This document shows, piece after piece, positions 8,090 to 25,287 of a stretch of DNA of 64,000 nt. Location: the NCBI GenBank assembly GCA_043799545.1, contig JAZDNO010000029.1:20668-84667 (forward strand), written 5' to 3'. Every line of letters begins with the position of its first letter. The first letter of the stretch is position 1. The notes below the pieces were generated by a model that saw nothing but the letters and a program-made list of their open reading frames with translations, was not told the origin of the DNA and did not search any database. The translations under genes and the position numbers were made by a program. This stretch comes from Methanobacteriota archaeon (GTDB lineage: Archaea; Thermoplasmatota; Thermoplasmata; SG8-5; DAIRED01).

Positions 8090-10099
8090 ATGCCGACGGC
8101 CATGTTCTGCCCGCTATGCAAATCGCTCCTCACGCCTTACGGCAGGGGCAAAGGACAGACGCGGGTCTGCAAGGCCTGCGGCTACTCCGAGGGGGCGAAG
8201 GGCAGGGGAGCACCGCCCGCGCCACCGAATCCCAAGCACGCCGCCTTTCCGCTTTTTCCGTACGAGAGAATCCGCGACGGCCAGTGCGAGTTCATGGAGG
8301 ACATGCGCGCCGCGGCGGGCGAGGGAAAGGTCATGGTCGCCCAGGCCCCGACAGGAATCGGGAAGACCGTCGCCACCCTGGCAGTACTATTGGAGTACTG
8401 CTTGGAGAAAAAGAAGAAGCTGCTGTTCCTCACGTCCAAGCAGAGCCAGCACACGATGGTCGTCAACACCCTCCGGGAGATTTCCGAAGCCTCGGGGAAG
8501 AGAATCCGCGCCGTCGACATCATCGCGAAGCAGGCGATGTGCCCGGAGAGCGAGTCCTCTTTGCCAGGCTACGCCTTCGCGGCATTTTGCTTCATGCGCA
8601 TCAAATCGAAATCCTGCCCGTTCTACGAGGCGGACGGCGAGGCCGCTGGCAAGCTGATTCTCCAGAAAATCATGCACGTTGGGGAACTAAAGCGCTCATG
8701 CATGCGGCTCGGCGTATGCCCTTACAAGGCGGCTCTGGATGCGATTCCTGACGTCGACGTGGTCGTCTGCGACTACAACTACATGTTCGACGTCATGCGC
8801 GACAAGATGCTCGATAAGGTCGAGGGCGGCTTGCAGGGGATGGTGCTCGTCATAGACGAAGCCCACAACCTGCCAGACCGGATAAGGTCGAACCTGAGCC
8901 GGGAGCTGAACCATTACGGGATGGCGGAGGCCGCGAGGGAGGTGGGCACGGGCGCGCAGAGGGGCCAGCGCTACACAGGCTCGCTGAAGCGGGCGCTCAA
9001 CGGATGGGCGAAGGGCTCGATGGACGAGCCAGAGGAGTACGTCCAGAAGGAGCGCCTGACCGGCGCGCTGGACAGCGCCCTGTCCGAAACCCTCGGCGAG
9101 AGGGACGCGCCGGAGGATTACATCAAGTGGCTTGTGGACGTGGGCACGAAGACCATGCTGTCCGGAACCGGGGTCTCCCACGCCCTGGAGCTGGCGGAAT
9201 TCCTGAAGAGCTGGATGGAATCCGGGGAGGCGAGCGCAAGGATACTCGCGCGCGGCGAGGGCGGCGCGTGGGGACTGAAGCTCTACCACATGGACCCGGC
9301 GACGATGGGCGCGCCGGTTTTCGCGGAAATCCACTCGGCGGTGCTGATGTCCGGCACTCTGTGCCCTCCGGAGATGTACGCTGACATCCTGGCAATCCCC
9401 GAGGGGCGTCGGATGCTGAGGGTCTACGGTTCGCCGTTCCCGCCGGAGAACAGAAGGGTGCTCGCGCTGAAGGGGGTGAGCAGCGAGTGGACCCGGCGCG
9501 GGGAGGCGATGTTCGCCAAGTACGCACAGACTTTGGCGGAGCTGGCGAAAGCAACGAACGGAAACGTGGCCGTGTTCTTTCCTTCATATAAATACGTCGA
9601 GGAGGTTTCGAGCCGAATGGCGGGAAAGGCCGAACCGCAAAACCTGCTCGTCGAATCGCGCTGGATGACGAAAGGCGACAGGGACGACATCCTCGGAAGG
9701 CTGAGGGCGCGCGACGGGCCGAAGCTCCTGATGGCTGTACAGGGCGGAAGCCTGGGCGAGGGCATAGACTACGAGAAGAACCTGCTGTCGGTCCTCGTCG
9801 TCGCGGGGATGCCGCTGGCGCCACCGAACAAGGAGGTGCTCGCCCTGAGGGCGCACTGCGTCAAGCGGTTCGGGCGCGAGAAGGGCGAGATTTACGGCTA
9901 CTACGGCCCGGCGTTCAACAAGGTCGTCCAGAGCGCTGGCAGACTGATACGCAGCGAGACTGACAGGGGCGTCGTCATATTGATGGACGAGCGCTTCGCG
10001 CAGCAAAGGTACGCGGCGTTCCTGCCGCCCGAGTTCCGGCCGAAGGTCTTCGACAGGCCCATGCAGATGGTCGATGAGGTCCGGGAATTTTTCGGGTGA
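8090..10099 (+). CDS. xpd: XPD/Rad3-family 5'-3' DNA helicase (4Fe-4S) with N-terminal Zn ribbon
   Basis: Q motif RDGQ, APTGIGKT, four Fe-S Cys (MCP, AFC, SCPFY, VCPY), VIDEAHN, SGTL, EGIDY, QSAGRLIRSETDRG. N-terminal CPLC..CKAC. Confidence 0.92.
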   Translation: MPTAMFCPLCKSLLTPYGRGKGQTRVCKACGYSEGAKGRGAPPAPPNPKHAAFPLFPYERIRDGQCEFMEDMRAAAGEGKVMVAQAPTGIGKTVATLAVLLEYCLEKKKKLLFLTSKQSQHTMVVNTLREISEASGKRIRAVDIIAKQAMCPESESSLPGYAFAAFCFMRIKSKSCPFYEADGEAAGKLILQKIMHVGELKRSCMRLGVCPYKAALDAIPDVDVVVCDYNYMFDVMRDKMLDKVEGGLQGMVLVIDEAHNLPDRIRSNLSRELNHYGMAEAAREVGTGAQRGQRYTGSLKRALNGWAKGSMDEPEEYVQKERLTGALDSALSETLGERDAPEDYIKWLVDVGTKTMLSGTGVSHALELAEFLKSWMESGEASARILARGEGGAWGLKLYHMDPATMGAPVFAEIHSAVLMSGTLCPPEMYADILAIPEGRRMLRVYGSPFPPENRRVLALKGVSSEWTRRGEAMFAKYAQTLAELAKATNGNVAVFFPSYKYVEEVSSRMAGKAEPQNLLVESRWMTKGDRDDILGRLRARDGPKLLMAVQGGSLGEGIDYEKNLLSVLVVAGMPLAPPNKEVLALRAHCVKRFGREKGEIYGYYGPAFNKVVQSAGRLIRSETDRGVVILMDERFAQQRYAAFLPPEFRPKVFDRPMQMVDEVREFFG

Positions 10100-10227
10100 G
10101 CCGCTCTTTGGGCAGCGCCACAAATGAGTATATATTTGGAGCATCTAGCAATTAAAGTAGTTTTTTTCTCTTATTTTGCTGTGCAATACAATATGCGATA
10201 TTGTAGTATAAAAGGTGCGGTCGGTGT

Positions 10228-10641
10228 TTATTCGACAAGTCTCTGAATGAAATCCTTCGGAGTAATTATCTCTATGCCTCTCACTCTTTTCAAGGTAAGC
10301 AGATGTTTATCGCCAGTCACTATGTAACCAGCCTTGCCCGCAATGGCCGCTTCTATGACCTTGTTGTCATCGGGATCGTCTTTGACCAAATTCACTTTGG
10401 ATTTCGGGTGGACCACCTCTGAAATCTTGATAGTCATGGCTAGGATTTCTTTGATCTGCTCTTGTGAGTAAGGAAATTTTGGCCTAGACAGGACTTCCTC
10501 GAACTCGAACAATATTTCCGGGGAAATGACCAACCTCACCTTTTCCCTGTAGACCGCCCGGAGGGCCATGTACGGAGGCCCCTGTCCGTTCAACGCCGAA
10601 ACCAGAACGTTCGTGTCGTAGATTGCCCGTATATCGGCCAT
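10228..10641 (-). CDS. PIN-domain toxin (VapC-like, TIGR00305-type)
   Basis: YDTNVLVSAL, EFEEVL.RPKF, DDPDDNKVIEAA..GKAGYIVTGDKHLL. Confidence 0.9.
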   Translation of the reverse strand: MADIRAIYDTNVLVSALNGQGPPYMALRAVYREKVRLVISPEILFEFEEVLSRPKFPYSQEQIKEILAMTIKISEVVHPKSKVNLVKDDPDDNKVIEAAIAGKAGYIVTGDKHLLTLKRVRGIEIITPKDFIQRLVE

Positions 10642-10642
10642 G

Positions 10643-10909
10643 TCACGCGGCCTGCCTCTTTTTCCGGTATTCCCGTATCTCCTCCATGACTACTTCCTCG
10701 GTTATTCCGGCCTCTTTCGCCAGCTTGGAAGTCGCCTTCACCAGCTTGTCGAATTCCTTTTCCACGGAAGGGAAATCCACTCTCTTGAAAATAACGTAGT
10801 CCTTCTCACCGTACGCGATGAACCTGTCCTCCGCATTCAGTCCCAGGAGCGCCCTCAGCTCCGCAGGAATCACAACCTGGCCTTTCTTGGACATCTTCAC
10901 GAATTCCAT
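10643..10909 (-). CDS. AbrB/MazE/SpoVT-family antitoxin
   Basis: MEFVKMSKKGQVVIPAELRALLGL; ends 1 nt before the PIN start. Start trimmed to ATG 10909. Confidence 0.88.
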   Translation of the reverse strand: MEFVKMSKKGQVVIPAELRALLGLNAEDRFIAYGEKDYVIFKRVDFPSVEKEFDKLVKATSKLAKEAGITEEVVMEEIREYRKKRQAA

Positions 10910-11151
10910 CTGTATCACCGTTGAACAGTTATACGGTTCAACACTTAAATAACTTCCCACTAACGCCCTTGGGACTTGCAAAACATCTTTACGACCATAG
11001 CCAGCACCCAGGAAAACCGCAAATGGCATCTTCGCTGCGATTCCCAACGCAAAGCTGCCTATTTGGGGTTTTCAGCCCTCGGGCCACCGCATCTATTTCA
11101 CCCTTGCTCCCAACAAGCCCGCCACAGCTTCCAACCGACCTCTAGGACTTC

Positions 11152-11188
11152 GCCATTTTCTCTCCGCATTAGCTGGTGAGAAAATGGC
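11152..11188. repeat. Perfect 11-bp inverted repeat with 15-nt spacer
   Basis: GCCATTTTCTC (11152-11162) and GAGAAAATGGC (11178-11188). Confidence 0.8.
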
Positions 11189-11200
11189 ATCGTCCACCTC

Positions 11201-11383
11201 ATGCAACTGCCAGAGGTTGCCAAGGAAATATCTGGAGAGTTCGAGCACCCCTTAGACCAAGTGCTTAGGAGCCTGTCTTTCGGTCTTTGCCCAATCACGG
11301 GGTTCGTAATCTGCCACTATCCAGACGATTGCCCGGGCTGCATAGATATCACAGACGAGATGCTGAGGAGCGTGCTGCAATGA
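11201..11383 (+). CDS. Small Cys-rich hypothetical protein
   Basis: 60-aa ORF with four Cys; its TGA overlaps the next ATG (ATGA at 11380-11383). Confidence 0.45.
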   Translation: MQLPEVAKEISGEFEHPLDQVLRSLSFGLCPITGFVICHYPDDCPGCIDITDEMLRSVLQ

Positions 11384-11759
11384 GGAAAATCATAGACCAC
11401 AGGGGATACAAAATGCGCGGAATCCTCTACCTCCCGCAAGACCTCAACCGCCTGAAATGCACAACACCGAAACGCTGGACCACTGGATTGCGAAAGCCCT
11501 AGTCTTTCGCATCCTACGGAGGCTGGGGCATGACCTCGTAACAGAGTTCGAAATCACCGGCATGGGCATCGGGGACATATTCGATCTGACAAAATCGGTC
11601 CAGTACGAAATAGAAACCGTCAGTTACCTAAAAGCTGTCCAGCGAAGGGGCGAGCAATACGCCAGGATGGGCGTCGAGGTCATCGTGATACCGATGGGAA
11701 GGCTGCCGGAGGACATCGTGGAGCGGGAGAAGGCACTGAGGGAGTGGATGTGGGAGTAA
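11380..11759 (+). pseudogene. Possible frameshifted PD-(D/E)xK-like protein (or intact CDS 11457-11759)
   Basis: MRKIIDHRGYKMRGILYLPQDLNRLK joins MHNTETLDHWIAKALVF by a one-base shift at CTGAAATG (11452-11459). Downstream E..GDIFD..QYEIET resembles a nuclease core. Confidence 0.4.
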
Positions 11760-11764
11760 TTGAA

Positions 11765-11838
11765 GGCATCCCCGACCACGGTTTGTCGGGAAGGCTCACG
11801 CTGCCAGCCAGGCTTTTTTGGCGTTTGCGGCGACAGGT
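11765..11838. repeat. 74-bp cassette-boundary direct repeat, copy A
   Basis: Ungapped match to 13815-13888 (57/74 identical by manual count; exact 19-mer CGGGAAGGCTCACGCTGCC). Contains hairpin CCCGAC/GTCGGG. Confidence 0.9.
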
Positions 11839-11855
11839 GTAAGGGTTACGGTTGG

Positions 11856-12293
11856 TCATTTTTCAGCATCTCCCAGATATTGTCCAGTGATGCCTCCCCA
11901 GTAGCCATCAAACTTTACTGCTAAATCCATTGGTTGATCCAGCTCATATCGATTGAAAGTCACTGAAAATTGGTCACCATTAGTAAAAGTACCTCCGCCA
12001 TCAGTATCTATATAATCCCACACAAAGTCTGTATTATTCAGATAAGTACCATTGCATTCAATAATCACATTGAAATTCACAGCGTTTAGATGAACCCTAG
12101 CTGGATTTAAATAAATGTATGTGACATTAAAAATAATGGTCTTTGAAGTGTTATTTATGCTATATGGCGTCATCGTCCCAGAAATTTCTGGTTGGTCCTC
12201 AATGATCCCATCGTAGTAATTTACGGCGAAATAGACAACTAGAATTGTCACTATAGATACAATCGCCATAATTACACCTGTAATTTTTTTCAT
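11856..12293 (-). CDS. Membrane-anchored hypothetical protein; cognate partner of the orphan metallopeptidase cassette
   Basis: MKKITGVIMAIVSIV.. N-terminal TM helix, DYIDTDGGGTFTNGDQF; ATG overlaps the upstream TAA (TAATG); AT-rich. Confidence 0.8.
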   Translation of the reverse strand: MKKITGVIMAIVSIVTILVVYFAVNYYDGIIEDQPEISGTMTPYSINNTSKTIIFNVTYIYLNPARVHLNAVNFNVIIECNGTYLNNTDFVWDYIDTDGGGTFTNGDQFSVTFNRYELDQPMDLAVKFDGYWGGITGQYLGDAEK

Positions 12294-13819
12294 TATATCA
12301 CATCCCAATGCATACTTAACGTCACATCCACCGTCGGAGGTTCAATATTATAAACCTGCGAGAATAGAGCATTGCTAGTAGTGAACCAATATATCCTGGT
12401 ACTAAAATCGAAATTTACGTCATTGGCGTCTAAGTTTTCGTCAAGTAACGCTGCAAAGGGGATGTAATTTGGGGAATAGGCAAATTCATCAAACGTAATT
12501 ATCCCCTTTCGGTCCCCCATTTGCTCAACAAACCATTCCCAGCAAGATACCCCCCGTTCATCCCAGTGTGCAGGTTCTGGCCAATAATGATTGTCGAACC
12601 ATTCATCGTACCACTGATGATAGCTCATATAAGATATATCGCTTGTCATAAGCGTGTTCCAATCAACTGAGTAGCCGACATCATGGTAAGGTATCACATT
12701 TGGCCATCCTGTTGCATAATACCCATATTCATCTCCGAATCAGAAAACATAATGGCCTAACTCGTGAACAATTGTTGGTATCATATAACAACTATCAAAT
12801 GAATATCCATTATACGTCCTAGGTAAACTTACTTCGCCATCTGGGAATCCCCAGTTAATGCCGTTCCAATATCCGTTTAAGTTTTTAACATGTGGCCAAT
12901 AAGTGTCACTAGTTTCGTCCGCATCCTGGTCTCCAACCCTGATATTGACATTGTTCCAATTCTGCATATTATTATAGATTGTGACATCAGAGATATAAGC
13001 GTATCCATCTGTGCAGGTCATTAGATAAAGACTAGCGCCTTTGAACCCATCTTTTATTTGATTAATTTCTGCTATTGTTGCCTCCCAGCCGATGGAAACA
13101 GATAATTTAATTTTATAGACATTCGATGAATCCCGTGGGTTCTTCCAGCCAATTAAATATTCCCATTTGCTCAAGAGACCATCTCCATCATAATCATAAT
13201 CCGCATCTGATGGGTCAAATATGTTTAGACCATATTTATATTCATACCAATTTTGTATTCCATCTCCATCAGTGTCTATGTGAGCATCATTATGAATCGG
13301 GCTCAAGCCATTTTGTATTTCATACGGGTATGGTATTCCGTCCCCGTCCCCATCGTTCTGCCAAACATCAAACCACACCTCGCAGTCGTCCTCGTCGTCA
13401 TCTCCGCTCGTCCCCGTGCTCCCGTCCTCGTTCCCGCTGACGTGCCCGTAGCCGTCGCTGTCCCAGTCCGTCGGGCCGTTCGCCGTCCCGTCCCCGTCCG
13501 AATCCCCGGGGAGCATCCAGCCGCCGCCGATTCCGTCCTCCAGCTCGTCCCCGTCCATCAGGCCGTCGTTGTCCGTGTCCCCGTATCGCGGGTCGGTGCC
13601 GCTCTGCTTCTCCATATTGTCGTCCAGGAGGTCGCCGTCGGAGTTCACCTTCGTCGGGTCCGATGTGGCGGTGTAGGTCACGTCCGCAACGGGCGCGTTG
13701 TCTATCTCTACCTGCACCAGCCAGCCGGAGACTTCCTCGCCGTCGGAGAGGCCGTTGAACGGAGGATACACCAGGACTAATTCATCAACCAGGAGTGTCG
13801 GTTGTTCCACCGGTGGCAT
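12293..13819 (-). pseudogene. Orphan C-terminal cassette: GC-rich copy of the giant-protein pre-tip region fused to a CLCA-like HExxH zinc metallopeptidase with one in-frame TGA
   Basis: No signal peptide. GLSDGEEVSGW, GGGWM, NGPTDWDS and GYGHVSG.EDG..DEDDC..WFD are shared with 14606-24004. ASLYLMTCTDG..HELGHYVF*FGDEY; ORFs 12740-13969 and 12293-12697 are in the same frame. Confidence 0.85.
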
Positions 13820-13888
13820 ACCAGACCAAGGTTTGCCGGGAAGGCTCACGCTGCCGCATAACGCCTTTTGGCGTTTTCTTCGGCAGGT
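13815..13888. repeat. 74-bp cassette-boundary direct repeat, copy B
   Basis: Offset exactly 2050 bp from copy A; nested hairpin CTGCCG..AACGCC-TTTT-GGCGTT..CGGCAG. Confidence 0.9.
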
Positions 13889-13898
13889 TCGGGGGTTT

Positions 13899-14594
13899 CT
13901 AAACTGCATCCTTTTTCCTCCGCTTCCGCATGAAGTATATGGCAATTCCCGCGCCAGTAACAGTAACACTCACAGCGACGCCAATTATTACCAAGAGGGA
14001 ATCGCCATTAAAGTCTGGTTTCGATGTTCTAATTTCATTATTCGTTCTGCCCGGGGTCGGGTTTGCATCCGCATAAAAATCATCCGTCACGTTGTCCGTG
14101 TCGTATCCATATTCATATCTCGCCCATGAGTAATTCATGGGGGGATAATCATCGCCGTCAAATACATCAATATGCCCTGTCCAATCAGTATTGTCAACAA
14201 TAAACCGTCCTAGGTATCGAAGATCTAATTGAAATATATTTACAGATTGTCCTATTACCCAATCATTCTTCATTACTTCAATATCGGAAGTAAAAATAAC
14301 ATATTTATCCGGCTTAATTATCGCACATGTCTCATTTAATGGATATGGGCTAATTGAACCTATACCATCAAAGCTTATAGGATGAAAGTATAAATCCATT
14401 AAATTCACTGATTTCGCTGTAGGATTATATAATTCCACAAATGAACATTTATCCTCCATACCAGTTATGGAGTAATATATTTCATTTATCACAATATGTT
14501 TCGCGGATTGTGGTACTTCTTCAGATAATACTATCTGACTACATACATTTATGAGACACACACCCACACAGATTGCTATTATATTTTTTTTCAT
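13899..14594 (-). CDS. Exported lamin-tail-domain (LTD)-like protein with C-terminal TM anchor; cognate partner of the giant peptidase
   Basis: GGAGGAG SD overlapping the upstream TAG; signal peptide; IVINEIYY..FVELYNPT..VNL..ATPGRTN (LTD pattern); TM followed by RKRRKK. Confidence 0.82.
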   Translation of the reverse strand: MKKNIIAICVGVCLINVCSQIVLSEEVPQSAKHIVINEIYYSITGMEDKCSFVELYNPTAKSVNLMDLYFHPISFDGIGSISPYPLNETCAIIKPDKYVIFTSDIEVMKNDWVIGQSVNIFQLDLRYLGRFIVDNTDWTGHIDVFDGDDYPPMNYSWARYEYGYDTDNVTDDFYADANPTPGRTNNEIRTSKPDFNGDSLLVIIGVAVSVTVTGAGIAIYFMRKRRKKDAV

Positions 14595-14605
14595 ATAATC
14601 TCCTC

Positions 14606-17600
14606 CTAAAGATATGTGAACATATCTATCGACACAGTATCGAATAAAGGAGAAGCCCGTTGAGGTGTTTGCCACGCAATAGCTGCCGATTCGCCACAAA
14701 TATATGCCTCATATAGGCTGATAATACCATTACCATTAATATCGACTGAAGGATTGCAGCTAATCGCCCCTGTCGTTATATCTCCAGATAATGGAACTAA
14801 AGCATTCCGGAAATTATAATTAAAAAACCATTTAGAATCTGCCACGGTATTTACACCATAAGCATCTTCATCTGAATCTGCTGATGTATACACAATTCTC
14901 TTCGGCGACGAGAGTTCATCGATAAAACGACCACTTGAACATGTTTCCATCAAGATGACCATCCTTTCATAATTATTTAATTTTCCGACGTATGAACTTC
15001 CTGCGAATTCATCTTCATCAATGGTTTCTCCACTATCACCACCCCATAATTTAATAACACAATTACCCCATTGATTATCACCTGAGTGCCCGATTACTAT
15101 CGTAAAAAGAAAGTCATGTGGCCCCATTACGTTACTTAACCGAATAAAAGCACCAGTTATAGCTGCACAACTAGAAGGTGCATCAACCATATGTTGATGC
15201 TCATTAACTAATATTGCTGCATCGGGTATACCGTCATTATTATTATCATCGTCTGCTGGCCATTGTGAATTATAGCAATTTGATGTACTAATGGCGCTCC
15301 CATCTGCATAAAATACCTCGATATCCCTTTTCTGATAACTGTAATCCTCAATTAATAGGTCATACCATCTGACAATGTCATTCCATATGTTCGCATAATT
15401 ATATGCTGGTCCTGTGTTTGCCCCTATTATCAATGCATATCTTCCATTATAAATTGCAGGATCCTGCCAGCCCAAGCCTCCGGCTATGGCATTCACTTCG
15501 TATAAATCAGACATTCTATCGCCATCGGAATCCGCGATGTCTGGCCTAGTGCCATAGATTCTTTCACTGTTTCCGTCTAATCCATCTCCATCAATGTCGA
15601 TATTGGTAAATTCTATTGGATTAGTATTGTATGCTGGTTGACCTGGTTGTCGTTCTTTGACTTCCTCCCAATAAGTTAACCCATCATCATCGTTATCATT
15701 CTGTTTAATGTCAAACCATAAATCGCAATCATCCTCGTCATACGTTGTACCCCAACTCCCGTCTTCATCGCCGCTGACGTGCCCGTACCCGTTGGCGTCC
15801 CCGAGAGTATCATCTCCCGACCACTGACCGGTCTTCAAATCGTACCACATGCTCGCGTATGGCCACGCGCCCCCGACATCGCAAACGTCGTCGCCATCCG
15901 GCGGTGAGTGCCCCTGGTCGTCGTCGTAGAGAACGATTATGACCTCAATTGGATTGTTCGTGACCCAGTCCGACAATCCGCTAGACGGGAACGTAAATCT
16001 GCTCCCTATCTCGTTCGGGGTCTTGTGTGCGTCGTCGTCCCAATTCGTCACACCGTCCGCGTTCTTCCAGTTCGCGCCATTCGGGTCCTTCGTGTTGTCC
16101 CGCCCGTCGTCTTTATTCTGCCCGTACATCATTTCATCGATGAACACTTTAAGATAGAAATCTCCAGCATACGAGCCGTCCGGGTCCACCTTGTCCAGCG
16201 CCAGTATCTCCGTTATCTTCACTGTTAACTCAAGGTCCGTGATCGGGTCTACGTCGTACCCGTCCGGCGCCCCGTCCAGGTCCATGTCATGGTTCAGCGG
16301 GTCGGTCTCGCCCTCCGCCAGGTCCACGACTATGTCCCCATCCGGGTTCTCGCCCCTGTACGTCTCGGGACTGCAATGCTTCGCCACCTTCACGGAGCCG
16401 ATATAGAATACCGTTCCCGTCGAGCTGTAAACAGGCACCGTCCTCACGACCTCCGGGAGCGTCACAGGACCGCCGTCCCAGAACCCGTCGCTGTCCGTGT
16501 CAGGGGTGAGCCATGACGTTCCCTGCACGCCGACCAATCCAGGCCGGTAGTCGGTGGTCCATTCGTAGATGTTAGTCAGGCCGTCCCGGTCATAATCTTT
16601 GTCGTAATCTGCGGCGGGGAACGGCACGACCGCGTCTCCGTTCTCTCCCCTAATCACGAACCTCTCCTTGTCCGAAAGGCCGTCGCCGTAGCTGTCCCAG
16701 TCCGTCGGGCCGTTCTTCACGCCGTCCGCGTCGTTGTCGAGCCCCTTCACCATCCACCCGCCGCCGAACGCGTCTATCAGCTCGTCCCCGTCAGCCAGGC
16801 CGTCCCCGTCCGAGTCCGCGTTTCCAGGGTCCGTCTTGTATTGATACTCCCAGTAATCGTTTAAGGCGTCGGTATCAGTATTTTTCCTCAACGGGTCCGA
16901 CCTGATATGGTATGTATTGTCGATTCCGAGTTTGTTGTTGAACTCGATTGAGACGTTCCAACCTTTGACTTCGAAGCCGTCCATCAGACCATCCCTGTCA
17001 CTGTCCGCTATCAGGACACCGGTACCGTACCTCGCCTCGTCGCAGTCAAGTAGACCATCCCCGTCATCGTCGGCGTCGGCGTTGTTCCCGGTTCCGTCCC
17101 CGTCAGTGTCTAGCCATTCCGTCGAGTCGAGGGGGAATGCGTCCGAGGTATCGAAATGACCGTCGTTGTCGTCGTCGTGATCGGCAGTCAGAACGGTTCC
17201 CGAGAACCACGAGGGCTTGGAAAACGCAACGTCCGGCTTGTTATCGCCATCGGTATCGATGGCTCCGGTGGGGTTCAATCGCCATTCCAGTTTCTCCTGA
17301 ATGTCAAGCACCCCGTCATTGTCGTCGTCCAAATCTAAGACGAGCATTGGGGGTGAAGGCTTGTACCAATTAGAGAATGGCTCGACATAGACCTCGTCTG
17401 GTTGACCGTCCCCATCAGTGTCTGCCCATGCCCGGGGGTTGCGCGAAAATGCGTCCGCGTCATCCAAAACCCCATCATTATCGTCATCCTGGTCTTCATT
17501 ATCTCCTAACGGAGTTATCCCGTCAGGCTTGAAATCCCCATCAGTGTTACGAGATTCTAGGGGATTGCGCGAAAATTCCGGAGGATCTTCCTCGACATCG

Positions 17601-20600
17601 GGTACACCATCATTGTCGTCATCAGAATCTCCGTTGTTCCCGATACCATCTTTGTCTGTATCAAGCCACTCCGTCGCGAACAACGGTAACTCGTCGTATT
17701 CCACACCTGCATCATAAATGCCATTGTTATTGTTCTCAGCGTCTCGGATGAGCCCGACTATGTGGTCTGGCACCCCGTCATTGTCGTCGTCCAAATCCTC
17801 CAAGAGCGGCGTTTCGACGAACCACCATGGGACTGATAAAAATACGTTCGGCATTCCGTCGCCATCGGTGTCCTCAGCTCCTGTTGGGTTCCAAGGAAAG
17901 GCGTCTTCAATGTCCAACACGCCATCGTTGTCATCATCCGCATCGCTGTTGTTCCCGATGCCGTCGAAATCCGTGTCCACCCACTCGGTCGGGTCGACCG
18001 GGAAGGCATCCGCCAAGTCTCCACACGGGTCACCGTCAGAGTTGTAGTTGACCGGGTTTGTGACATAGTTGTCCAGTCCCTTAACGGATTCCTCATAATC
18101 GCTCAGGCCATCTTCGTCCGAGTCGTCCTTGGTTGGATCCGAGCCTATTATCTTCTCTTCATCATCAAAAATACTATCCGAATCAGAGTCACTCATCCCA
18201 GGATTTGAAATGACCATGTATTCCAACGGCGATTCGTATCCTTCGATGATGGCATCCGTAATCCACCCAGACAGCTCTTCGCCATCAGACAGTTTGTCAC
18301 CATCACTGTACTCGGTCGTCGGATTCGTGATTAATATATCCACTGTCACGGAAAAATCGATTATATTGATATGCCCATACGACATCGTTGTAAACTTTAT
18401 CGGAATGAAAAGATTTTCATCTATGTTATCTCCTTGTGTGGCGATGTAGTGTTGTATGTCGTTCGTCATGTCGATGTTAAATAATGTAGATTCGTCTAAG
18501 TCGAAAACGAATGATCGGCTCTCGTCTGAACCTATATCTACGCCAAGCGTCAAAGGATATTTAAATCGTTTATAGTGGATATTTATCGGATCAAATCCGC
18601 AACTGAAACACCATATTACAACCACTCTACCGTCGATGCATGTGTCGACGCTCATCATGCCCCCAATGGTTCCACTCTCAGAGCAAATGATTTCAGGCTC
18701 CGACCAAACATTGTCGCCATACATTTGATAATAGTAATTCCATTCTGTCCCCGTTCGCCCCATCCACACAAGATGAATTTTTCCATCCTTATCAATTGCA
18801 ATCGATGGCATCCTGGATTCATCAAATTTACCGACCGGATTTAAAGGACTCCATCCGATTCTGTTCCAGGTCCGCTCGATTATACCGAACTGGTAACCCG
18901 TTAGCGGGTTAATATAGATGCCTCCCCAAAATAGATGCACATTATTATCGGGAGTGATCGAAATCGTTGGGTTTCGGCAATGACCTTTAAACCCAATTTG
19001 ATTATTTATCCACTCAGTATTGCTCCACATCGCCCCATCCAATCGTCGATAAAACAATTCATCACTTACTGACTGCAAAAACTCATTCCACGCGATATGC
19101 ACAACATTCATCGAATCCACGGCAATCGATGGATAACGCGAGATGGCGGAACCAGTACTAACGACCATCGTCGTCCCCCACGACAAACCGTTCCACTGTT
19201 TATAATATATATCGCAATCAGTGCCGCTGCCAGCATAGTTCGAGTTGTCGACCCATGCCACGTGGATGCCGTCGTTCTCATCAATCACCATCGCCACCAT
19301 ATTATCGGCCCAATATGAAGGAACCGAGTTCCCTTCGCTTTCCGTGCTTATTCGTTCGATTGGCAGCCAGACCATGCCATTCCAACATCTGTGGAATACG
19401 TCAATGTCGTTTCCCGAGTCCATGAAGTTGGATGTGTCGGCCCATACCACATGAATATTGTCATGTGAATCGGTCGCAATGACGGGATATGTTGGGTTTG
19501 CATCCAGATCCCCACCGTCCAGTCTTTCGACAGCGCTCCAGGCATCTCCCGTCCCAGATTTATAATATATTGTATTGATATAATTTGGATATTCTCCCGT
19601 TCGATGTGCCCACACAATGTGGGATATCCCTTGCGAGTCTGTTGTGATGCCTTGCCTCAGACCGACTGAATCGTTGGGAGCGTTGTCAGTAATTCTCGTG
19701 GAATCTGGCACCCATTGAAATTCGAGCTTCGTTCCTGAGACATACTCCAACGAGTTATCCGCTTGAGGAATATTCAAAGTTGGCATAGCTAGATCATTCC
19801 CATGAAAACTTATGACCGGGGTGGGCGAGGGCAATCCTTCGTATGTCAGCTCAGTTATTGTTTGTGTGGTCCGCCGGGCGACATTCAATTCTTCCCCGTC
19901 GCTCAAGCCGTCGCCATCGGTGTCACTTCTTACTGGGTTGGTTGTCAGAATTTCTACCCTCATTGAGAAATCCGATAGTTCAATTATTCCAGAGCAAGTC
20001 GCCGTCAAGGTTAATGGTATCCATATCAACCCATCTTCTCCACCCATATCGGCACCATCCTCACTTATTGTCAAAATATAATTTAATGCATTTGTAAGTC
20101 CTTCTTGGAAAACCCCATCATGATATTCCTCAATCTCAAAGTCATTGAAACCATCATCGCCAATGTCCAAGTAGCTTACTCCTCCGGTCTTGTCAACAAT
20201 ATGAAGACAAGCCTCGCTGATATATTCCATGGCAACAATATTATCTGGAACTGTTACGAAGACGACCTTGCTCTCTCCACTGTAAAAAAATAGGGTCGCA
20301 TCTTCCGTCTGTATTCCATCACTGATAAAACTATCCGTAGTTTGCGGATGGACACAGTTGATATTGAACTCCACTCCGTCTGATATACCATCGAAATCTG
20401 TATCATCGGATACCGGGTTCGTGTCGAATGCACCTAACAAGATGGACACGTATTCGATATCAATTGATCCCCGTCTTTCGGAGTGGAACACTAATGGGAT
20501 TGAAATATTCCAATCCTCATCAACTACGAGGTCCGGGTGGGATAATAAATATTCATTCATTGGAACAACGAGGTTAGGCGTGGTCACGGAACCTTTCACA

Positions 20601-23600
20601 GGGAAAATCTCACAATCCGAGACACCGTCATCACCGATGTCAATGGATATATCTGGATATCCAAGGGGGGCGTCGTAGCAGAATATCGAGCTTGCTTCGA
20701 GATTTGCAGCAACAAGTTCTGGATACCCATTATTATCCACGTCGAGAGTTGCGACCGTCTTCGTTGTACCACCTTCTAATGCCGGGATACAGATGAGTTC
20801 TGGTTCGAAAAACCCCCTCCCGATATTTCTATAAATCGAAATTCGCCCGTCCAATCCAGTTTGACCAGATACAACGACATCCACATATCCATCGCAATCA
20901 ATATCCGAACTGCATATGTCATAAGGCCAGCACGATAAATAGTAATCAACTTTCGGGGCGAAGGCCCCATCACCATTGTTTGCGAAAAGGGAAATCGACT
21001 TGAAACCGTCTGTTGACAAGCGATCAACATTGCATACCACAATGTCTTGGTCTCCATCTTTGTCGTAATCCACGTTAACACCCTTGAACGGGCTGGATCC
21101 GGACATATAATCTACAGGTGATGCAAACGTTCCATCGCCTACATTTTCGTAGTATGATACTGCATCCACCATGTAATCATGAACCACGATATCTGAGTCG
21201 CCGTCACTGTTGAAATCGTTGGTTGAGGTCAGTATTGGATACCAACCGGTCGTCTGCAATGCACAAACCATGCTAAATTGGCCCGCCCCATCATTCTCGA
21301 ACAGTTCTAGCAATCCATGCCCATATTTTGAACCCAACATAGAGCATATGATGTCAATATTTCCATCGTTGTTGAAATCGATAGTTCCAGCACTCAGGGA
21401 AGCTCCACCGCCTGGTTGCCCGAGCATTAGAACGGAAAATACGCCGTCTCCGTTATTTTGTAACCAACCGAATTTTCCTTCATTAAGTGATGCCACAATA
21501 TCATAATCACCATCTGTATCTATGTCTGCCAGACAAATATTATTAATAATATTATCCAGTTGACAAGAAACCGGTTCGTTGAATACCCCATTTCCGGCAT
21601 TAATATAGCAATCGATTCGTGTTTGGGAAACAGCAACAATATCGCTATCACCATCCCGATCAACATCAAACGTTTCAATATCCCCGCATGTTCCATCTCC
21701 TGGTGCCAGAAGTCTAGATCTTTCCACAAGATTCGTCCATCCCTGCGTTATTGCAGGAACCCCGGACAACTGTAATTTCGCATCTACCAGATAGTCCATA
21801 GATGCCATATAATCCGGAACGTCAATGAAAACTGTCTCCCCATTACCGCAATCATCAAAGGTTAATCGCTTTGTCGCTTGACCGTCTGAAAATGTATTTA
21901 TTGCTGCATACGGGGCTTTATCAAGATTCATTTCCTCCGCATCGTTCAATCCATCGATGTCACAATCGTTGCGAGTTGCTTCCGCAATTGCGAAGATACT
22001 GAAATGATTGGTGCGCCCCCAAACGTACATGTTGTTTATGTCAATAGATGTTGCTTCCCCTGCAGATTTGTTGCCCAGTACATGCCATCCTGTTTCAGAA
22101 TATGTGTAAAGACATAGGTATTTTTCGTAAACTCCGACCGGAAGCGAATTGGGATTGTATCTTATTTTTATCACTGCCTCGAATGAATCTACGCTCGTTG
22201 TAGATATATTGAAACAATGCCCGATACCACATTCAAGCCCTACCGGGATGTTATCAGCCAGACTCACCGTCGGTTGAGTCGTCGATTCAACAGTGTAATC
22301 GACAGCCAATGTCACGCCTAGCGTGTCATTTGTGATAACGACATCGGAACTGAAATCATTCCCAAAAGATATGTCGAAGGCTAAAATATTATCATCTATC
22401 GAATCCGGGATGAAGTCGCCATCCAAATCCGGCATCAAGTTGATTGACTCCCCCTCTGACCATGTGATTGATATTTTTCCATTAAATACTACCATGTTCA
22501 AAGAGAGCGCGTTGACAGACGAATCGGGGATAGCGCCACCGATTCGTGGGGTCGCCCAAGAACCGTTACCTCCGGAGTACCATAATTCATCAATACCATT
22601 CACTTCATCTTGTATCCATGTGACATACATGATGCCCGTCGCGACATCCATCGATATTTGTGGTTGGCATACGTCCACCGATGCATGACTCAAAAGGACG
22701 CCCTCTGAGTTTATTTTCAATGTGACGACAGCGCCGACCCCACCCTCGTCAGTGTATGAAATTGCATAAACGTCACGCCCAATCGCAATTATATCGGGGC
22801 TCCTGCATTCCTCTGTGCTGAACGTGAGTAGTTCTCCTTCAGGACTGGAAATCGTACCGTCGGAGAGTACCTGGACAGTTTTCAGATATCCATCGCCATC
22901 AATCCCAGAATACGAAATCGCAAAGATGTCACCAGAAACCCTAATCATCTCCGGGAAACGCCCCCTCTCCGTGTCGAACACGTAAGAATCGATAACAGTA
23001 TCAGAAATGCAACCATCGGCAGATATCCGTATTGTTTTTAAACACCCATCATTGCCTGGGCCAGTGTATGCTATCGCATAAACACCATCAAATACATAGC
23101 TTACGTCGGGAGTTAAACCAGTCAAACAATCAAACTCTAGTATATCTATCGCAGAATTCGATATATTGCCCTCTTCGCTGATTGTGTATGTCTGGATATA
23201 TCCTTTAGAATTAAAATCAGAAAATGCGATCGCAAATGTGCTCCTGCCTATTGGTATGATATCTGGCGTATTGTAATTCTTCGTGTAATACACCATTGTA
23301 TCTATACCCGTAGTGGCTATCGTGCCGTTGCTGGCAATCCCTATGGTCTTCACGTAGCCGTCGTTGTTCGCGCCCTCGTAGGCTATTGCGAATACCTCGT
23401 CCGCCGTGGGTATTATCTCCGGGTTGTTGCAGATGCCGTGGTCGAAGACATAGGAATCCACCAGAGGCCCCGCTATGCTGCCGTTGTCCGCTATTCCCAG
23501 CGTGACCAGCTTGCCGTCGTTGCATATCGTGCTGTAGGCTATCGCGTAGACGCCGTCGCCCGCGCGGACGATGTCCGGCACCTTGCATATGCCAGTCTCG

Positions 23601-24004
23601 AACTTGAACCAATCTATCATCGCGGCAGATATATCCCCGCCCGGGCTTATGCCCACGGTCTTGATTATCCCGTCGTTGGAGGCGCTCCTGTAGACGACTG
23701 CGTAAACGTCACCGCTTATCGGGATTATCTCTGATTCCACTCCCCTATTGGTGTCGATTTCCAGCCTGTCCAGGACACTGTTGTTCGAGATGTCGGTGTA
23801 GTTGTCGTGGAGATTGTCGTCGTAGAACACCTGATAAACGCCGTTCACCTTCTCTCTCCAGACCTTGCGCTCGTACCCGTTCTGATCGATGAAAACGTCC
23901 ACCTGCTTCTCATAGTCGTCCTCGTAAGCAAAGACGTTCTGGAATGCGGTCACGCACATCACGCTCACGCACAACAGCGCCAGCCATTTTGTTAAAACGC
24001 TCAT
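14606..24004 (-). CDS. Giant secreted multidomain protein (7-blade repeat, PGF-pre-PGF-like, FG-GAP/VCBS, second propeller, TSP3-like Ca-binding repeats, C2-like) with C-terminal clan CD (caspase/legumain-fold) cysteine peptidase
   Basis: 3132-aa ORF; signal peptide; TNHFSIFAI; DFNNDGNIDI repeats; DAFPLD.TEWLDTDGDG repeats; C-terminal RYALIIGA, VIGHSG (His) and METCSSG (Cys). Confidence 0.85.
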   Translation of the reverse strand: MSVLTKWLALLCVSVMCVTAFQNVFAYEDDYEKQVDVFIDQNGYERKVWREKVNGVYQVFYDDNLHDNYTDISNNSVLDRLEIDTNRGVESEIIPISGDVYAVVYRSASNDGIIKTVGISPGGDISAAMIDWFKFETGICKVPDIVRAGDGVYAIAYSTICNDGKLVTLGIADNGSIAGPLVDSYVFDHGICNNPEIIPTADEVFAIAYEGANNDGYVKTIGIASNGTIATTGIDTMVYYTKNYNTPDIIPIGRSTFAIAFSDFNSKGYIQTYTISEEGNISNSAIDILEFDCLTGLTPDVSYVFDGVYAIAYTGPGNDGCLKTIRISADGCISDTVIDSYVFDTERGRFPEMIRVSGDIFAISYSGIDGDGYLKTVQVLSDGTISSPEGELLTFSTEECRSPDIIAIGRDVYAISYTDEGGVGAVVTLKINSEGVLLSHASVDVCQPQISMDVATGIMYVTWIQDEVNGIDELWYSGGNGSWATPRIGGAIPDSSVNALSLNMVVFNGKISITWSEGESINLMPDLDGDFIPDSIDDNILAFDISFGNDFSSDVVITNDTLGVTLAVDYTVESTTQPTVSLADNIPVGLECGIGHCFNISTTSVDSFEAVIKIRYNPNSLPVGVYEKYLCLYTYSETGWHVLGNKSAGEATSIDINNMYVWGRTNHFSIFAIAEATRNDCDIDGLNDAEEMNLDKAPYAAINTFSDGQATKRLTFDDCGNGETVFIDVPDYMASMDYLVDAKLQLSGVPAITQGWTNLVERSRLLAPGDGTCGDIETFDVDRDGDSDIVAVSQTRIDCYINAGNGVFNEPVSCQLDNIINNICLADIDTDGDYDIVASLNEGKFGWLQNNGDGVFSVLMLGQPGGGASLSAGTIDFNNDGNIDIICSMLGSKYGHGLLELFENDGAGQFSMVCALQTTGWYPILTSTNDFNSDGDSDIVVHDYMVDAVSYYENVGDGTFASPVDYMSGSSPFKGVNVDYDKDGDQDIVVCNVDRLSTDGFKSISLFANNGDGAFAPKVDYYLSCWPYDICSSDIDCDGYVDVVVSGQTGLDGRISIYRNIGRGFFEPELICIPALEGGTTKTVATLDVDNNGYPELVAANLEASSIFCYDAPLGYPDISIDIGDDGVSDCEIFPVKGSVTTPNLVVPMNEYLLSHPDLVVDEDWNISIPLVFHSERRGSIDIEYVSILLGAFDTNPVSDDTDFDGISDGVEFNINCVHPQTTDSFISDGIQTEDATLFFYSGESKVVFVTVPDNIVAMEYISEACLHIVDKTGGVSYLDIGDDGFNDFEIEEYHDGVFQEGLTNALNYILTISEDGADMGGEDGLIWIPLTLTATCSGIIELSDFSMRVEILTTNPVRSDTDGDGLSDGEELNVARRTTQTITELTYEGLPSPTPVISFHGNDLAMPTLNIPQADNSLEYVSGTKLEFQWVPDSTRITDNAPNDSVGLRQGITTDSQGISHIVWAHRTGEYPNYINTIYYKSGTGDAWSAVERLDGGDLDANPTYPVIATDSHDNIHVVWADTSNFMDSGNDIDVFHRCWNGMVWLPIERISTESEGNSVPSYWADNMVAMVIDENDGIHVAWVDNSNYAGSGTDCDIYYKQWNGLSWGTTMVVSTGSAISRYPSIAVDSMNVVHIAWNEFLQSVSDELFYRRLDGAMWSNTEWINNQIGFKGHCRNPTISITPDNNVHLFWGGIYINPLTGYQFGIIERTWNRIGWSPLNPVGKFDESRMPSIAIDKDGKIHLVWMGRTGTEWNYYYQMYGDNVWSEPEIICSESGTIGGMMSVDTCIDGRVVVIWCFSCGFDPINIHYKRFKYPLTLGVDIGSDESRSFVFDLDESTLFNIDMTNDIQHYIATQGDNIDENLFIPIKFTTMSYGHINIIDFSVTVDILITNPTTEYSDGDKLSDGEELSGWITDAIIEGYESPLEYMVISNPGMSDSDSDSIFDDEEKIIGSDPTKDDSDEDGLSDYEESVKGLDNYVTNPVNYNSDGDPCGDLADAFPVDPTEWVDTDFDGIGNNSDADDDNDGVLDIEDAFPWNPTGAEDTDGDGMPNVFLSVPWWFVETPLLEDLDDDNDGVPDHIVGLIRDAENNNNGIYDAGVEYDELPLFATEWLDTDKDGIGNNGDSDDDNDGVPDVEEDPPEFSRNPLESRNTDGDFKPDGITPLGDNEDQDDDNDGVLDDADAFSRNPRAWADTDGDGQPDEVYVEPFSNWYKPSPPMLVLDLDDDNDGVLDIQEKLEWRLNPTGAIDTDGDNKPDVAFSKPSWFSGTVLTADHDDDNDGHFDTSDAFPLDSTEWLDTDGDGTGNNADADDDGDGLLDCDEARYGTGVLIADSDRDGLMDGFEVKGWNVSIEFNNKLGIDNTYHIRSDPLRKNTDTDALNDYWEYQYKTDPGNADSDGDGLADGDELIDAFGGGWMVKGLDNDADGVKNGPTDWDSYGDGLSDKERFVIRGENGDAVVPFPAADYDKDYDRDGLTNIYEWTTDYRPGLVGVQGTSWLTPDTDSDGFWDGGPVTLPEVVRTVPVYSSTGTVFYIGSVKVAKHCSPETYRGENPDGDIVVDLAEGETDPLNHDMDLDGAPDGYDVDPITDLELTVKITEILALDKVDPDGSYAGDFYLKVFIDEMMYGQNKDDGRDNTKDPNGANWKNADGVTNWDDDAHKTPNEIGSRFTFPSSGLSDWVTNNPIEVIIVLYDDDQGHSPPDGDDVCDVGGAWPYASMWYDLKTGQWSGDDTLGDANGYGHVSGDEDGSWGTTYDEDDCDLWFDIKQNDNDDDGLTYWEEVKERQPGQPAYNTNPIEFTNIDIDGDGLDGNSERIYGTRPDIADSDGDRMSDLYEVNAIAGGLGWQDPAIYNGRYALIIGANTGPAYNYANIWNDIVRWYDLLIEDYSYQKRDIEVFYADGSAISTSNCYNSQWPADDDNNNDGIPDAAILVNEHQHMVDAPSSCAAITGAFIRLSNVMGPHDFLFTIVIGHSGDNQWGNCVIKLWGGDSGETIDEDEFAGSSYVGKLNNYERMVILMETCSSGRFIDELSSPKRIVYTSADSDEDAYGVNTVADSKWFFNYNFRNALVPLSGDITTGAISCNPSVDINGNGIISLYEAYICGESAAIAWQTPQRASPLFDTVSIDMFTYL
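15480..18330 (-). repeat. Asp-rich TSP3-like / DxDxDG calcium-binding repeat tract
   Basis: Many DTDGDG, DDDNDGVPD and DSDGDGLSDGEE units. Confidence 0.85.
22700..23790 (-). repeat. Seven ~52-aa tandem protein repeats (predicted 7-bladed beta-propeller)
   Basis: Consensus ID..xFD...G..PDII.x..DVYAIAY.G..NDG.xKTx.I...G.I read directly in the translation. Confidence 0.8.
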
Positions 24005-24293
24005 CTCAGGTCAACCCCTCTACCACTCTCAGAACGACAATGCAATATTTAATAATAAAGATAATGAGATTGTGTATATACTTCTTTATTCAAATAATAT
24101 TCTTCGATTAGATATATACATGCGCATTGTAAATGCGCCTACATAACTATTGGAATATACCGAATGCAAAAATACCTAGTTTATGGATTTGAGCCAGACC
24201 GTAAAAGTTCAGATTTCTGATATAAATATAAAAGAATGCGCTCAATATATACTTAAATTAGTTATTAGCCAGATAGAAAAATGATCGACTTAG

Positions 24294-24493
24294 CGGTATT
24301 ATCCGAAGGCACTAGGTTTGATGAGATACATTGATCCAGACGATGCGCCGTTCATCGCTCTCGCATTATCTTTTGACAACGATGGCATATGGACTAACGA
24401 TTCCCATTTTAACAACAGAACCAGTTGAGAATCTGGAATACGAAAGACTTGATCGAAGAATTGCGCGGGATGGAAGAAGAATCGCATTTGTGA
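24294..24493 (+). pseudogene. Truncated, frameshifted PIN-domain toxin remnant
   Basis: Manual translation IDPDDAPFIALALSFDNDGIWTNDSHF, then after a frameshift QQNQLRIWNTKDLIEEL. No intact N-terminus. The track lists only the antisense ORF. Confidence 0.72.
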
Positions 24494-24564
24494 GTCAAAA
24501 GAAATGAAGGGACTTGCACAGAGCGCTCGTCACGTTAATCTACTCATTGGGCATTTAGGGGACG

Positions 24565-25287
24565 ATGAAAGTCGTGGAAATGGTCCGCCTCCAGAAGTTC
24601 CTCGCCGATTCCGGCGTAGCCTCCAGGCGCGCGGCCGAAGAGCTAATCCTCGCGGGGCGGGTCATGGTGAACGGCAAGCTGGCCGCCAAGCTCGGCACGA
24701 AGGTCGACCCTGCGAGGGACTCGGTGAAGGTCGACGGCAAGCTGATACGGAAGCGCGTGGCGAAGCTATACGTTCTCCTGAACAAACCCGCCGGGTACGT
24801 GACCTCGACCGAGGAGTCCGAGGGCGCGCCGGTCGTCACTTCCCTCATGCCAGCGCACTTCGGCAGGCTCTTCCCAGTCGGTCGCCTCGACCTAAACTCC
24901 GAGGGTCTATTGATAATGACCAACGACGGAGAGCTGGCGCAGCAAATATCCCACCCCAGGAACAGGGTCGTGAAGACCTACGAGGTGAAGGTGAGGGGGC
25001 GCGTGGACGAAACGGTCTTGGAGTCCATGAAGCACGGCGTGTTCTCCGAAGGCGAGCGCCTGGTCCCGCTAGGGCTGAGGCGCGCGAAGCCCTTGTCCGG
25101 CGGCGCCTGGCTGGAGTTCAGGCTCGTCGGGGGTAAGAACAGGGAAATCCGCAGGATTTGCGAGACGATGTCCCTGCGCGTCGGAAGGCTGAGGAGAATC
25201 TCAATAGGCCGGCTACGACTGGGCTGGCTCGCGCCGGGCGAATGGCGGCTCGTGTCGCGGGACGAAATCGTGGCCGCGCTGAGATGA
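24565..25287 (+). CDS. rluB: RsuA/RluB-family rRNA pseudouridine synthase (S4 domain plus catalytic domain)
   Basis: RLQKFLADSGVASRRAAEELI..GRV.VNG, LNKPAG, FPVGRLD..SEGLL.MTNDG, KTYEV, GKNREIRR. Confidence 0.88.
   Translation: MKVVEMVRLQKFLADSGVASRRAAEELILAGRVMVNGKLAAKLGTKVDPARDSVKVDGKLIRKRVAKLYVLLNKPAGYVTSTEESEGAPVVTSLMPAHFGRLFPVGRLDLNSEGLLIMTNDGELAQQISHPRNRVVKTYEVKVRGRVDETVLESMKHGVFSEGERLVPLGLRRAKPLSGGAWLEFRLVGGKNREIRRICETMSLRVGRLRRISIGRLRLGWLAPGEWRLVSRDEIVAALR

Follow-up and report, generated by a model that had tools for sequence, protein, structure and literature searches.

A candidate archaeal polymorphic C-terminal-module locus with a giant secreted scaffold, variable enzyme tips and leader-headed orphan cassettes

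Bacterial polymorphic toxin systems of the CdiA-CT/CdiI, Rhs and MafB kinds share a large, secreted, repeat-rich protein with a conserved junction ahead of its variable C-terminal domain, a small gene, tightly linked on the 3' side, whose sequence changes along with this tip, and 5'-truncated orphan cassettes of tip and partner, the modules being AT-rich and horizontally circulating. Peptidases, including C-terminal caspase-like domains, are listed among the toxin domains (Zhang et al. 2012, PMC3482391), and orphan modules are known in the bacterial systems (PMC3150448). For archaea, polymorphic toxin systems have been predicted as a class rather than characterised (Makarova et al. 2019, as cited in PMC8416519). 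Here we describe a locus at 11.7-24.0 kb of a 64,000-nucleotide stretch of DNA (the window; positions 20668-84667 of contig C31, JAZDNO010000029.1) from an uncultured Methanobacteriota archaeon of the class Thermoplasmata (G000, assembly GCA_043799545.1, 2.06 Mb in 31 contigs), where a giant gene with a peptidase tip is followed on the minus strand by a first partner gene, an orphan tip cassette and a second partner gene. On balance, we read it as a polymorphic C-terminal-module locus of an archaeon, with the construction of a Sec-dependent polymorphic toxin system; that its tips and partners constitute a recombination-diversified cassette system is highly probable.

The locus resembles the bacterial systems in all the features listed above and departs from them in several others. 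Its host is archaeal, and it is without a TpsB, type VI secretion system or type VII secretion system partner. In place of VENN, PxxxxDPxGL or a PT domain, the C-terminal edge of a C2-like domain serves as the junction; the heads found so far are surface-acting enzymes rather than nucleases or pore-formers (toxicity and immunity being putative), the partners are exported or membrane-anchored ORFans rather than known Imm families, and the orphans of this lineage begin with a leader that is conserved and translated. The VARTIG module of Thermococcales, whose function is predicted only, likewise comprises a large secreted archaeal protein with a C-terminal part diversified by recombination and with variable downstream genes, but it varies an Ig domain and, unlike the window's locus, is without enzyme heads or truncated orphan arrays (PMC8416519). 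The original prediction, made from the letters of the window, had recognised no described system here; the layout is indeed distinct from the named bacterial kinds, but archaeal polymorphic toxin systems had, according to PMC8416519, already been predicted as a class.

Open reading frame (ORF) calls and translation located all four genes in the layout that had been proposed. The giant gene (14606-24004, minus strand, as are all genes of the locus) is a single uninterrupted ORF whose 3132-residue product (P0001) runs from a Sec-type signal peptide, read from the translation, through FG-GAP and BNR-like propellers and TSP3-type Ca-binding repeats to a C2-like domain, a short TSP3 linker and a clan-CD peptidase tip. 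The FG-GAP/TSP3 character of this scaffold, likewise foreseen, is borne out by an FG-GAP_3 match (4e-25), by BNR_4 and TSP3_bac matches that both lie under their curated cutoffs, and by repeat families D1-D6 in a GC-rich TSP3 arm (residues 1991-2583; 16256-18034). Tip 1 (14609-15454) is a legumain/caspase-like cysteine peptidase: Peptidase_C13 matches residues 2867-3052 with 24.8 bits against a gathering cutoff of 22.8, and the catalytic His (in HSG) and Cys (in ETCSSG) are invariant across the nine sequences of alignment A5, so that both a profile match above cutoff and a His/Cys dyad in the conserved order place it in clan CD. The giant gene and the first partner gene look intact. A paralogue of 3591 residues (P0006) on contig C12 has the same N-terminus and pre-tip domain, carries PKD domains, ends in a Peptidase_C14 tip (7.6e-8) and is ATGA-coupled to its partner gene.

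An alignment of the two giants delimits the pre-tip domain, which begins at D.DPLVDL.VTV.I.EI.ALD, ends at WFDI.QND and is about 190 residues long; its final 40 residues form the junction motif D.NGYGHVSG.EDGS...DEDDC..WFDI.QND.D.DGL (residues 2736-2776, 15677-15799, by a hidden Markov model (HMM) hit). A search with the domain profile against 1.84 billion representative proteins revealed 92 that carry the domain or motif; the motif HMM was positive in 87 of 94 sequences, and the motif usually lies 230-430 residues from the C-terminus. Cataloguing what follows it, as had been suggested, yielded many enzyme families. The 66 post-motif regions fell into 16 blastp clusters, eight with at least two members and eight singletons; the largest is a Zn-peptidase-type cluster of 28 that includes the window's orphan, followed by a clan-CD cluster of nine that includes both giants of the genome, and by clusters of 9, 4, 4, 2, 2 and 2. 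Pfam matches in these regions comprise C13, C14, C11 (3.5e-51), C25, CHAT, reprolysin-like/M66/M10/CLCA, Metallophos (1.5e-17), PAD_porph (3.4e-29) and Transglut_core, and the sequence beyond the motif belongs to at least eight unrelated families. The expectation that the tips are unrelated proteases held for the Cys clan CD and Zn types, but metallophosphatase, peptidyl-arginine deiminase (PAD) and transglutaminase heads occur as well.

Homologues of the scaffold do not keep one C-terminus, in line with the proposal that tips are swappable: three pairs of giants are colinear up to the motif and differ thereafter. P0006, with its C14 tip, and P0029, with a metallophosphatase tip, correspond over about 3300 residues; P0001, which has the C13 tip, matches the Zn-peptidase protein P0011 at 54% identity throughout the pre-tip domain and is unrelated to it afterwards; and P0011 and the clan-CD giant of locus L037 part company at the same place. 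At the DNA level, two orphans of one metagenome-assembled genome (MAG) have arms identical at 181 of 207 nt (87%), with homology that extends upstream of the called ATG and falls to background exactly after WFNI, their tips being unrelated. Recombination breakpoints recur at the 3' end of the C2 coding region, as had been proposed for the motif. Distal to it, linker, head and partner gene appear to be exchanged as one block, and displaced or stored blocks probably persist downstream as 5'-truncated orphans.

The breakpoint coincides with a break in composition. GC content at third codon positions (GC3) along the giant gene is 0.69 in the TSP3 arm (overall GC 0.57), 0.68 in the C2 domain, 0.35 in the linker and 0.28 in the AT-rich tip; along the orphan it is 0.88 in the arm, 0.31 in the linker and 0.40 in the tip, with 0.32-0.33 in the partners and 0.83 in flanking core genes. 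The abrupt fall in GC reported at the motif in both genes is therefore real and lies just 3' of it. It is not merely an amino-acid-composition effect of the Asp/Gly-rich repeats, and the tip/partner blocks have a foreign-like codon composition.

The pre-tip domain itself (residues 2584-2782, 15659-16255) is matched by no Pfam model, including no Pfam C2 match on the window's copy; a relative, P0024, has a precomputed weak Pfam C2 match. AlphaFold, given an alignment of 28 sequences, modelled it as an all-beta sandwich (pLDDT 78.5, pTM 0.81). All but one of the top Foldseek matches listed are C2 domains, as are 50 of the 50 best entries in VIA, the best structural match having Z 9.2 and a root-mean-square deviation of 2.4 Å over 110 of 111 residues; dysferlin, cytosolic phospholipase A2 (cPLA2), perforin and synaptotagmin-type C2 domains are among the matches. 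We assign the modelled domain to the C2 superfamily at the level of the fold, with putative Ca and lipid binding. In the model, the motif supplies the last two strands (E159-161 and E176-185), and the delimiter is thus the C-terminal edge of a C2-like domain. The conserved delimiter motif of the original prediction is upheld as a recombination breakpoint by the tip clusters, the collapse of identity and the GC3 break, but not as a free-standing element. In perforin and cPLA2, a C2 beta-sandwich with Ca-dependent lipid binding also sits beside an effector or catalytic domain; the likeness (structural Z of about 8.2, 13-17% identity) is one of fold only, and the archaeal domain differs in its extracellular context. 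A model of C2 domain plus tip from nine sequences (pLDDT 53) was too poor for structure search, and PDB sequence searches with the Zn tip and with C2 domain plus tip gave nothing meaningful.

The comparison with CdiA, Rhs and MafB gains support from seven further loci in at least two lineages (L006/L032, L037, L038, L068, L069, L071 and L074), where the order giant, partner, orphan recurs; there the orphan usually has its own following partner, and some loci hold a second orphan. In the same-genus genome G001 (L006/L032), a 2285-residue giant with a Zn tip precedes a 229-residue partner with two membrane segments, a 759-residue orphan composed of leader, TSP3 repeats, full C2 domain and clan-CD tip, and a second leader copy. 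Locus L037 comprises a 2410-residue giant, whose tip is 47% identical to that of the G001 orphan, a 192-residue partner, an 851-residue leader-orphan with a PAD tip, a beta-helix protein and a leader ORF, while L038 holds the end of a giant, a four-segment membrane partner, a 993-residue leader-orphan and an insertion sequence (IS) element. In a second lineage (L068, L069 and L071-L076, including two contigs of MAG GCA_964601625.1), one or two truncated orphans lie behind the end of a giant and its partner; these orphans start within the C2 domain or motif, and a partner of its own accompanies most of them.

A small gene is coupled to the 3' side of the tip in every locus examined. Partner 1 (13899-14594; 231 residues), whose ATG lies 11 nt past the giant's stop, consists of an N-terminal membrane/signal segment, a lamin-tail-like domain (LTD, 2.3e-6, under the curated cutoff) and a C-terminal membrane segment with a basic tail, the hydrophobic segments spanning residues 3-21 and 195-213; a word-based search of 5.8 billion proteins returned no match other than itself. 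Partner 2 (11856-12293; 145 residues), whose start overlaps the orphan's stop (TAATG), has an N-terminal membrane segment and an exported domain of about 120 residues for which a Pfam scan gave no match. Among 17 partner entries compared, 16 are distinct (two are 99.6% identical); all have an N-terminal membrane/signal segment and several a C-terminal one, and no two of the 16 are homologous. A prediction of the complex between tip residues 2851-3132 and the partner 1 ectodomain scored 0.00, which gives no verdict and is evidence neither way. The C-terminal membrane segment and basic tail of partner 1 (13899-14000) are similar to those of the L037 beta-helix protein (L037:12653-13891; 46% over 24 residues, E 0.001), and such an anchor is present in several partners that follow giants; these proteins may use it in common as a signal for sorting or anchoring.

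The genes lie on a 14.5-kb genomic island (10095-24579) that is absent at the same site in G001. Homology to contig C18 of that genome stops at window position 10094, at the end of an XPD helicase gene, and restarts at 24580 in an RluA-like gene; since these endpoints are only 125 bp apart in G001, as are the two genes, the intervening DNA is an insertion. Its GC content varies from 0.31 to 0.63 against about 0.65 in the flanks. Within the order, the distribution is patchy: 6 of 22 genomes have the pre-tip domain and 4 of the 22 have the leader. The nearest Atlas clusters are all archaeal (Methanobacteriota and Thermoplasmatota).

Taken together, four of the six features of polymorphic toxin systems were found, namely the architecture, the breakpoint, a coupled variable downstream gene and orphan arrays. 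As somewhat the likeliest function, we lean towards contact-dependent antagonism or the discrimination of kin, in which the partner would serve as protector. In such a scheme the stalk would project from the cell, and the C2-like domain would dock the head, in a Ca-dependent manner, onto the membrane of a neighbouring cell; the head could then damage or modify surface proteins of non-kin cells, while the hypervariable partner, held at the outside of the membrane by its anchor, would protect the producer and its kin. Archaeal antagonism and kin recognition are almost uncharacterised experimentally, and the locus family offers a testable candidate with defined tips, candidate protectors and a breakpoint. 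It would also present a prokaryotic C2-like domain as the constant adaptor that joins a stalk to interchangeable heads, which bears on the origin of Ca-dependent membrane-targeting modules.

Several observations speak against a toxin-like system. No classical toxin domain (nuclease, deaminase or pore-former) occurs among the 66 tips and the partners examined, and the partners scanned (P0003, P0005 and P0007) match no known immunity family. The scaffold comparisons were made at 30-54% identity and not at strain level. Furthermore, the head families C11, C25, C13, PAD and Zn peptidase also fit display by a protein-scavenging archaeon. In two genomes of another lineage, stand-alone genes that combine a signal peptide, C2 domain and Zn peptidase, and are each followed by a small gene, lie in syntenic positions surrounded by core genes; given this core context, the basic module is not intrinsically a mobile weapon and is older and broader than the cassette system.

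Nutritional enzyme display is accordingly the main rival, and a live one. Surface-tethered or membrane-docked hydrolases would digest extracellular protein and organic phosphate, the partner would be an anchor, a chaperone or a self-protecting inhibitor, and exchange would diversify the digestive repertoire. The tips, which include clostripain-, gingipain- and legumain-like and Zn peptidases, arginine deiminase and metallophosphatase, with no nuclease or pore-former found among them, suit this function, as do the stand-alone genes between core genes. Sediment Thermoplasmatota reportedly encode extracellular clostripain- and gingipain-type peptidases for the degradation of detrital protein, and in Porphyromonas gingipains act together with a PAD enzyme. 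What such a function leaves unexplained are the arrays of 5'-truncated orphans, whose arms are nearly identical and whose tips are unrelated, and the hypervariable, tightly coupled partners; moreover, the composition break at the motif, the patchy distribution and the island insertion are hallmarks of conflict systems and not of housekeeping exoenzymes. We therefore regard it as possible but rather unlikely. Were it true, it would represent recombination-driven diversification of displayed exoenzymes in sediment archaea.

It is considerably less probable that the locus encodes a self-processing adhesin, in which the clan-CD peptidase matures or releases the giant in the manner of the cysteine protease domain of MARTX-type proteins, and the downstream gene encodes an unrelated membrane protein. 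Caspase-like domains in large bacterial surface proteins and toxins are mostly releasing peptidases (PMC3482391), and the tip is the last domain with nothing distal to it. Against this, a releasing peptidase normally lies upstream of a cargo domain and there is no cargo here; homologues hold non-protease heads (metallophosphatase, arginine deiminase, transglutaminase-like) at the same position, and a coupled partner gene is present in every locus examined.

Returning to the polymorphic cassette system, the window's own orphan (12293-13909) comprises leader, TSP3 arm, motif, linker and Zn-peptidase tip, and is broken. Its ORF runs for 409 codons and continues in frame past a TGA for 148 more (12293-13969), the stop (12740-12742) falling inside HELGHYVF*FGDEYG. 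The two exact DNA matches reported between giant and orphan were verified (a 17-mer, 15771-15787 = 13434-13450, and a 25-mer, 16691-16715 = 13457-13481), and between them some 290 residues, most of the C2 domain among them, are missing from the orphan. With a TGA within its zinc-binding motif and this loss, the orphan is non-functional in its present form and represents a stored cassette that has been inactivated. The description of an orphan with the same pre-tip region and motif as the giant is thus correct for the motif (13334-13462, by the motif HMM) and for the TSP3 arm, which is 55% identical to that of the giant over 105 residues, but not for most of the C2-like domain. Similarly, the tip's HExxH motif is present, though interrupted (HELGH...(TGA)FGDEY), and the tip clusters with 27 other Zn-type tips, but the best Pfam match to the orphan copy is Peptidase_M64 (E 0.08-0.1), which is not significant; its CLCA-like label derives from the motif. 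Relatives of the tip have weak reprolysin-like, M66, M10 and CLCA matches, the nearest being P0045, an orphan of another lineage (43% over 292 residues), and not the Zn tip of the congener.

That the orphan is instead a decayed tandem duplicate of the giant's 3' end, with repeats A and B as duplication scars and no cassette system, a possibility that the original prediction had itself raised, would accord with the in-frame stop, the internal deletion and the homologous arm, but is most improbable and was rejected in its simple form, because its Zn tip and its partner are unrelated to the giant's clan-CD tip and partner, the closest tip is an orphan in another lineage, and the order giant, partner, leader-orphan, terminal leader recurs with intact orphans in G001, L037 and L038.

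The two repeats, A (11765-11850) and B (13815-13900), are about 85 nt long and 2050 bp apart, with a 41-nt core that is 90% identical, and a third copy is present on contig C12. Both are real, as had been noted, but they are not mere repeats, being the starts of a conserved translated leader of about 32-50 codons: each of the three copies opens with a Shine-Dalgarno-like GGAG and an ATG, and encodes M.FRNPRTCRRKRQKALCGSVSLP.KPWSGMP. Leader B (13763-13909, minus strand), which covers repeat B, has GGAGG and ATG and heads the orphan ORF with the peptide M.FRNPRTCRRKRQKALCGSVSLP.KPWSGMPP..P.LLVD..VLVYP. Leader A (11764-11859, minus strand), covering repeat A, is a terminal copy; its first 32 codons are conserved, after which the ORF diverges and stops at about 59 codons. 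A 100-codon ORF without a Pfam match (11457-11759, plus strand) converges on it, and the leader-A ORF enters the 3' end of this ORF.

Ten leader copies from four genomes of the order align. In six close copies, the variable sites are distributed 12/9/23 over the three codon positions, and synonymous codon changes exceed non-synonymous ones in every pair, which argues for translation of the leader under purifying selection. We dropped a terminator or RNA reading in favor of coding, as the repeat A hairpin CCCGAC/GTCGGG is not kept in B and the variable sites follow the 12/9/23 pattern; Rfam found nothing but tRNAs in the window and in L004, the repeats matching no known RNA family. The leader heads intact orphans in the other genomes (P0102, P0103 and P0104 in G001, L037 and L038), and an extra copy closes every array that is traceable to its end (G001, L037 and C12). 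The peptide does not have the make-up of a Sec signal peptide, and the orphans of the second lineage are without it. Silent orphan cassettes had been predicted, and 5'-truncated orphans do recur downstream, but those of this lineage carry a translated leader and are therefore not simply silent. We know of no counterpart in bacterial orphan modules to a conserved translated leader on stored cassettes.

It is tempting to speculate that the leader is a site of both recombination and expression. Tip-partner cassettes would integrate at a translated site of about 95 nt with an invariant 19-nt core, leaving one leader copy on each side, and the leader would supply the ribosome-binding site, start codon and basic N-terminal peptide; the whole would form an integron-like archaeal surface-effector system whose heads are docked on target membranes by an archaeal C2 domain. 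We consider this extension of the cassette system improbable, though worth stating. The 19-nt core is invariant within the window's genome, and an exact search for it in genome contigs returned 15 matches, none of them outside a Methanocalculus MAG and unrelated bacteria rich in GC; by our estimate this is about the number expected by chance.

Divergent leader-like ORFs (..KACRRKQ.KLRGGSAS..GKPWSGM..) are found in G003, from another family of the order (L035:813-3803 and L034:9431-10000), where they lie 3' of two paralogous genes with acylphosphatase-like starts and not of giant genes. Given this position away from giants, the leader may be an independent mobile or regulatory unit. In two genomes of another family of the order (G015 and G016; L064:6464-7987 and L062:3142-3495), motif ORFs open with another conserved basic N-terminus, MFD..LRR.TEQRRK.IR, just before the last C2 strands. 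This may represent another kind of orphan-cassette leader.

The second giant locus of the genome (L004:3077-17080; C12:61076-75079) continues after P0006 with the partner, a terminal leader ORF of 93 residues, a pair of small genes on the minus strand, of which one is winged-helix, a tyrosine integrase and a tRNA, and looks like an integrative island. On contig C22, a third large secreted protein of 2297 residues (L005:5778-12671) has the N-terminal region common to the giants, together with CARDB, FG-GAP and beta-helix/NosD domains; it gave no match in the junction-domain search, has no peptidase among its Pfam matches and adjoins an 891-residue BNR protein. A contig with one of the stand-alone C2-Zn-peptidase genes also encodes a gingipain-type protein (Propeptide_C25 + Peptidase_C25; L082:11703-13608) with a large PQQ-propeller protein nearby. 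At the left end of the window's island lies a gene pair of toxin-antitoxin type on the minus strand (10228-11047), comprising a PIN-domain gene (PIN_3, 4.7e-24) and a MazE/AbrB-like gene (MazE_antitoxin, 1.9e-4, under the curated cutoff).

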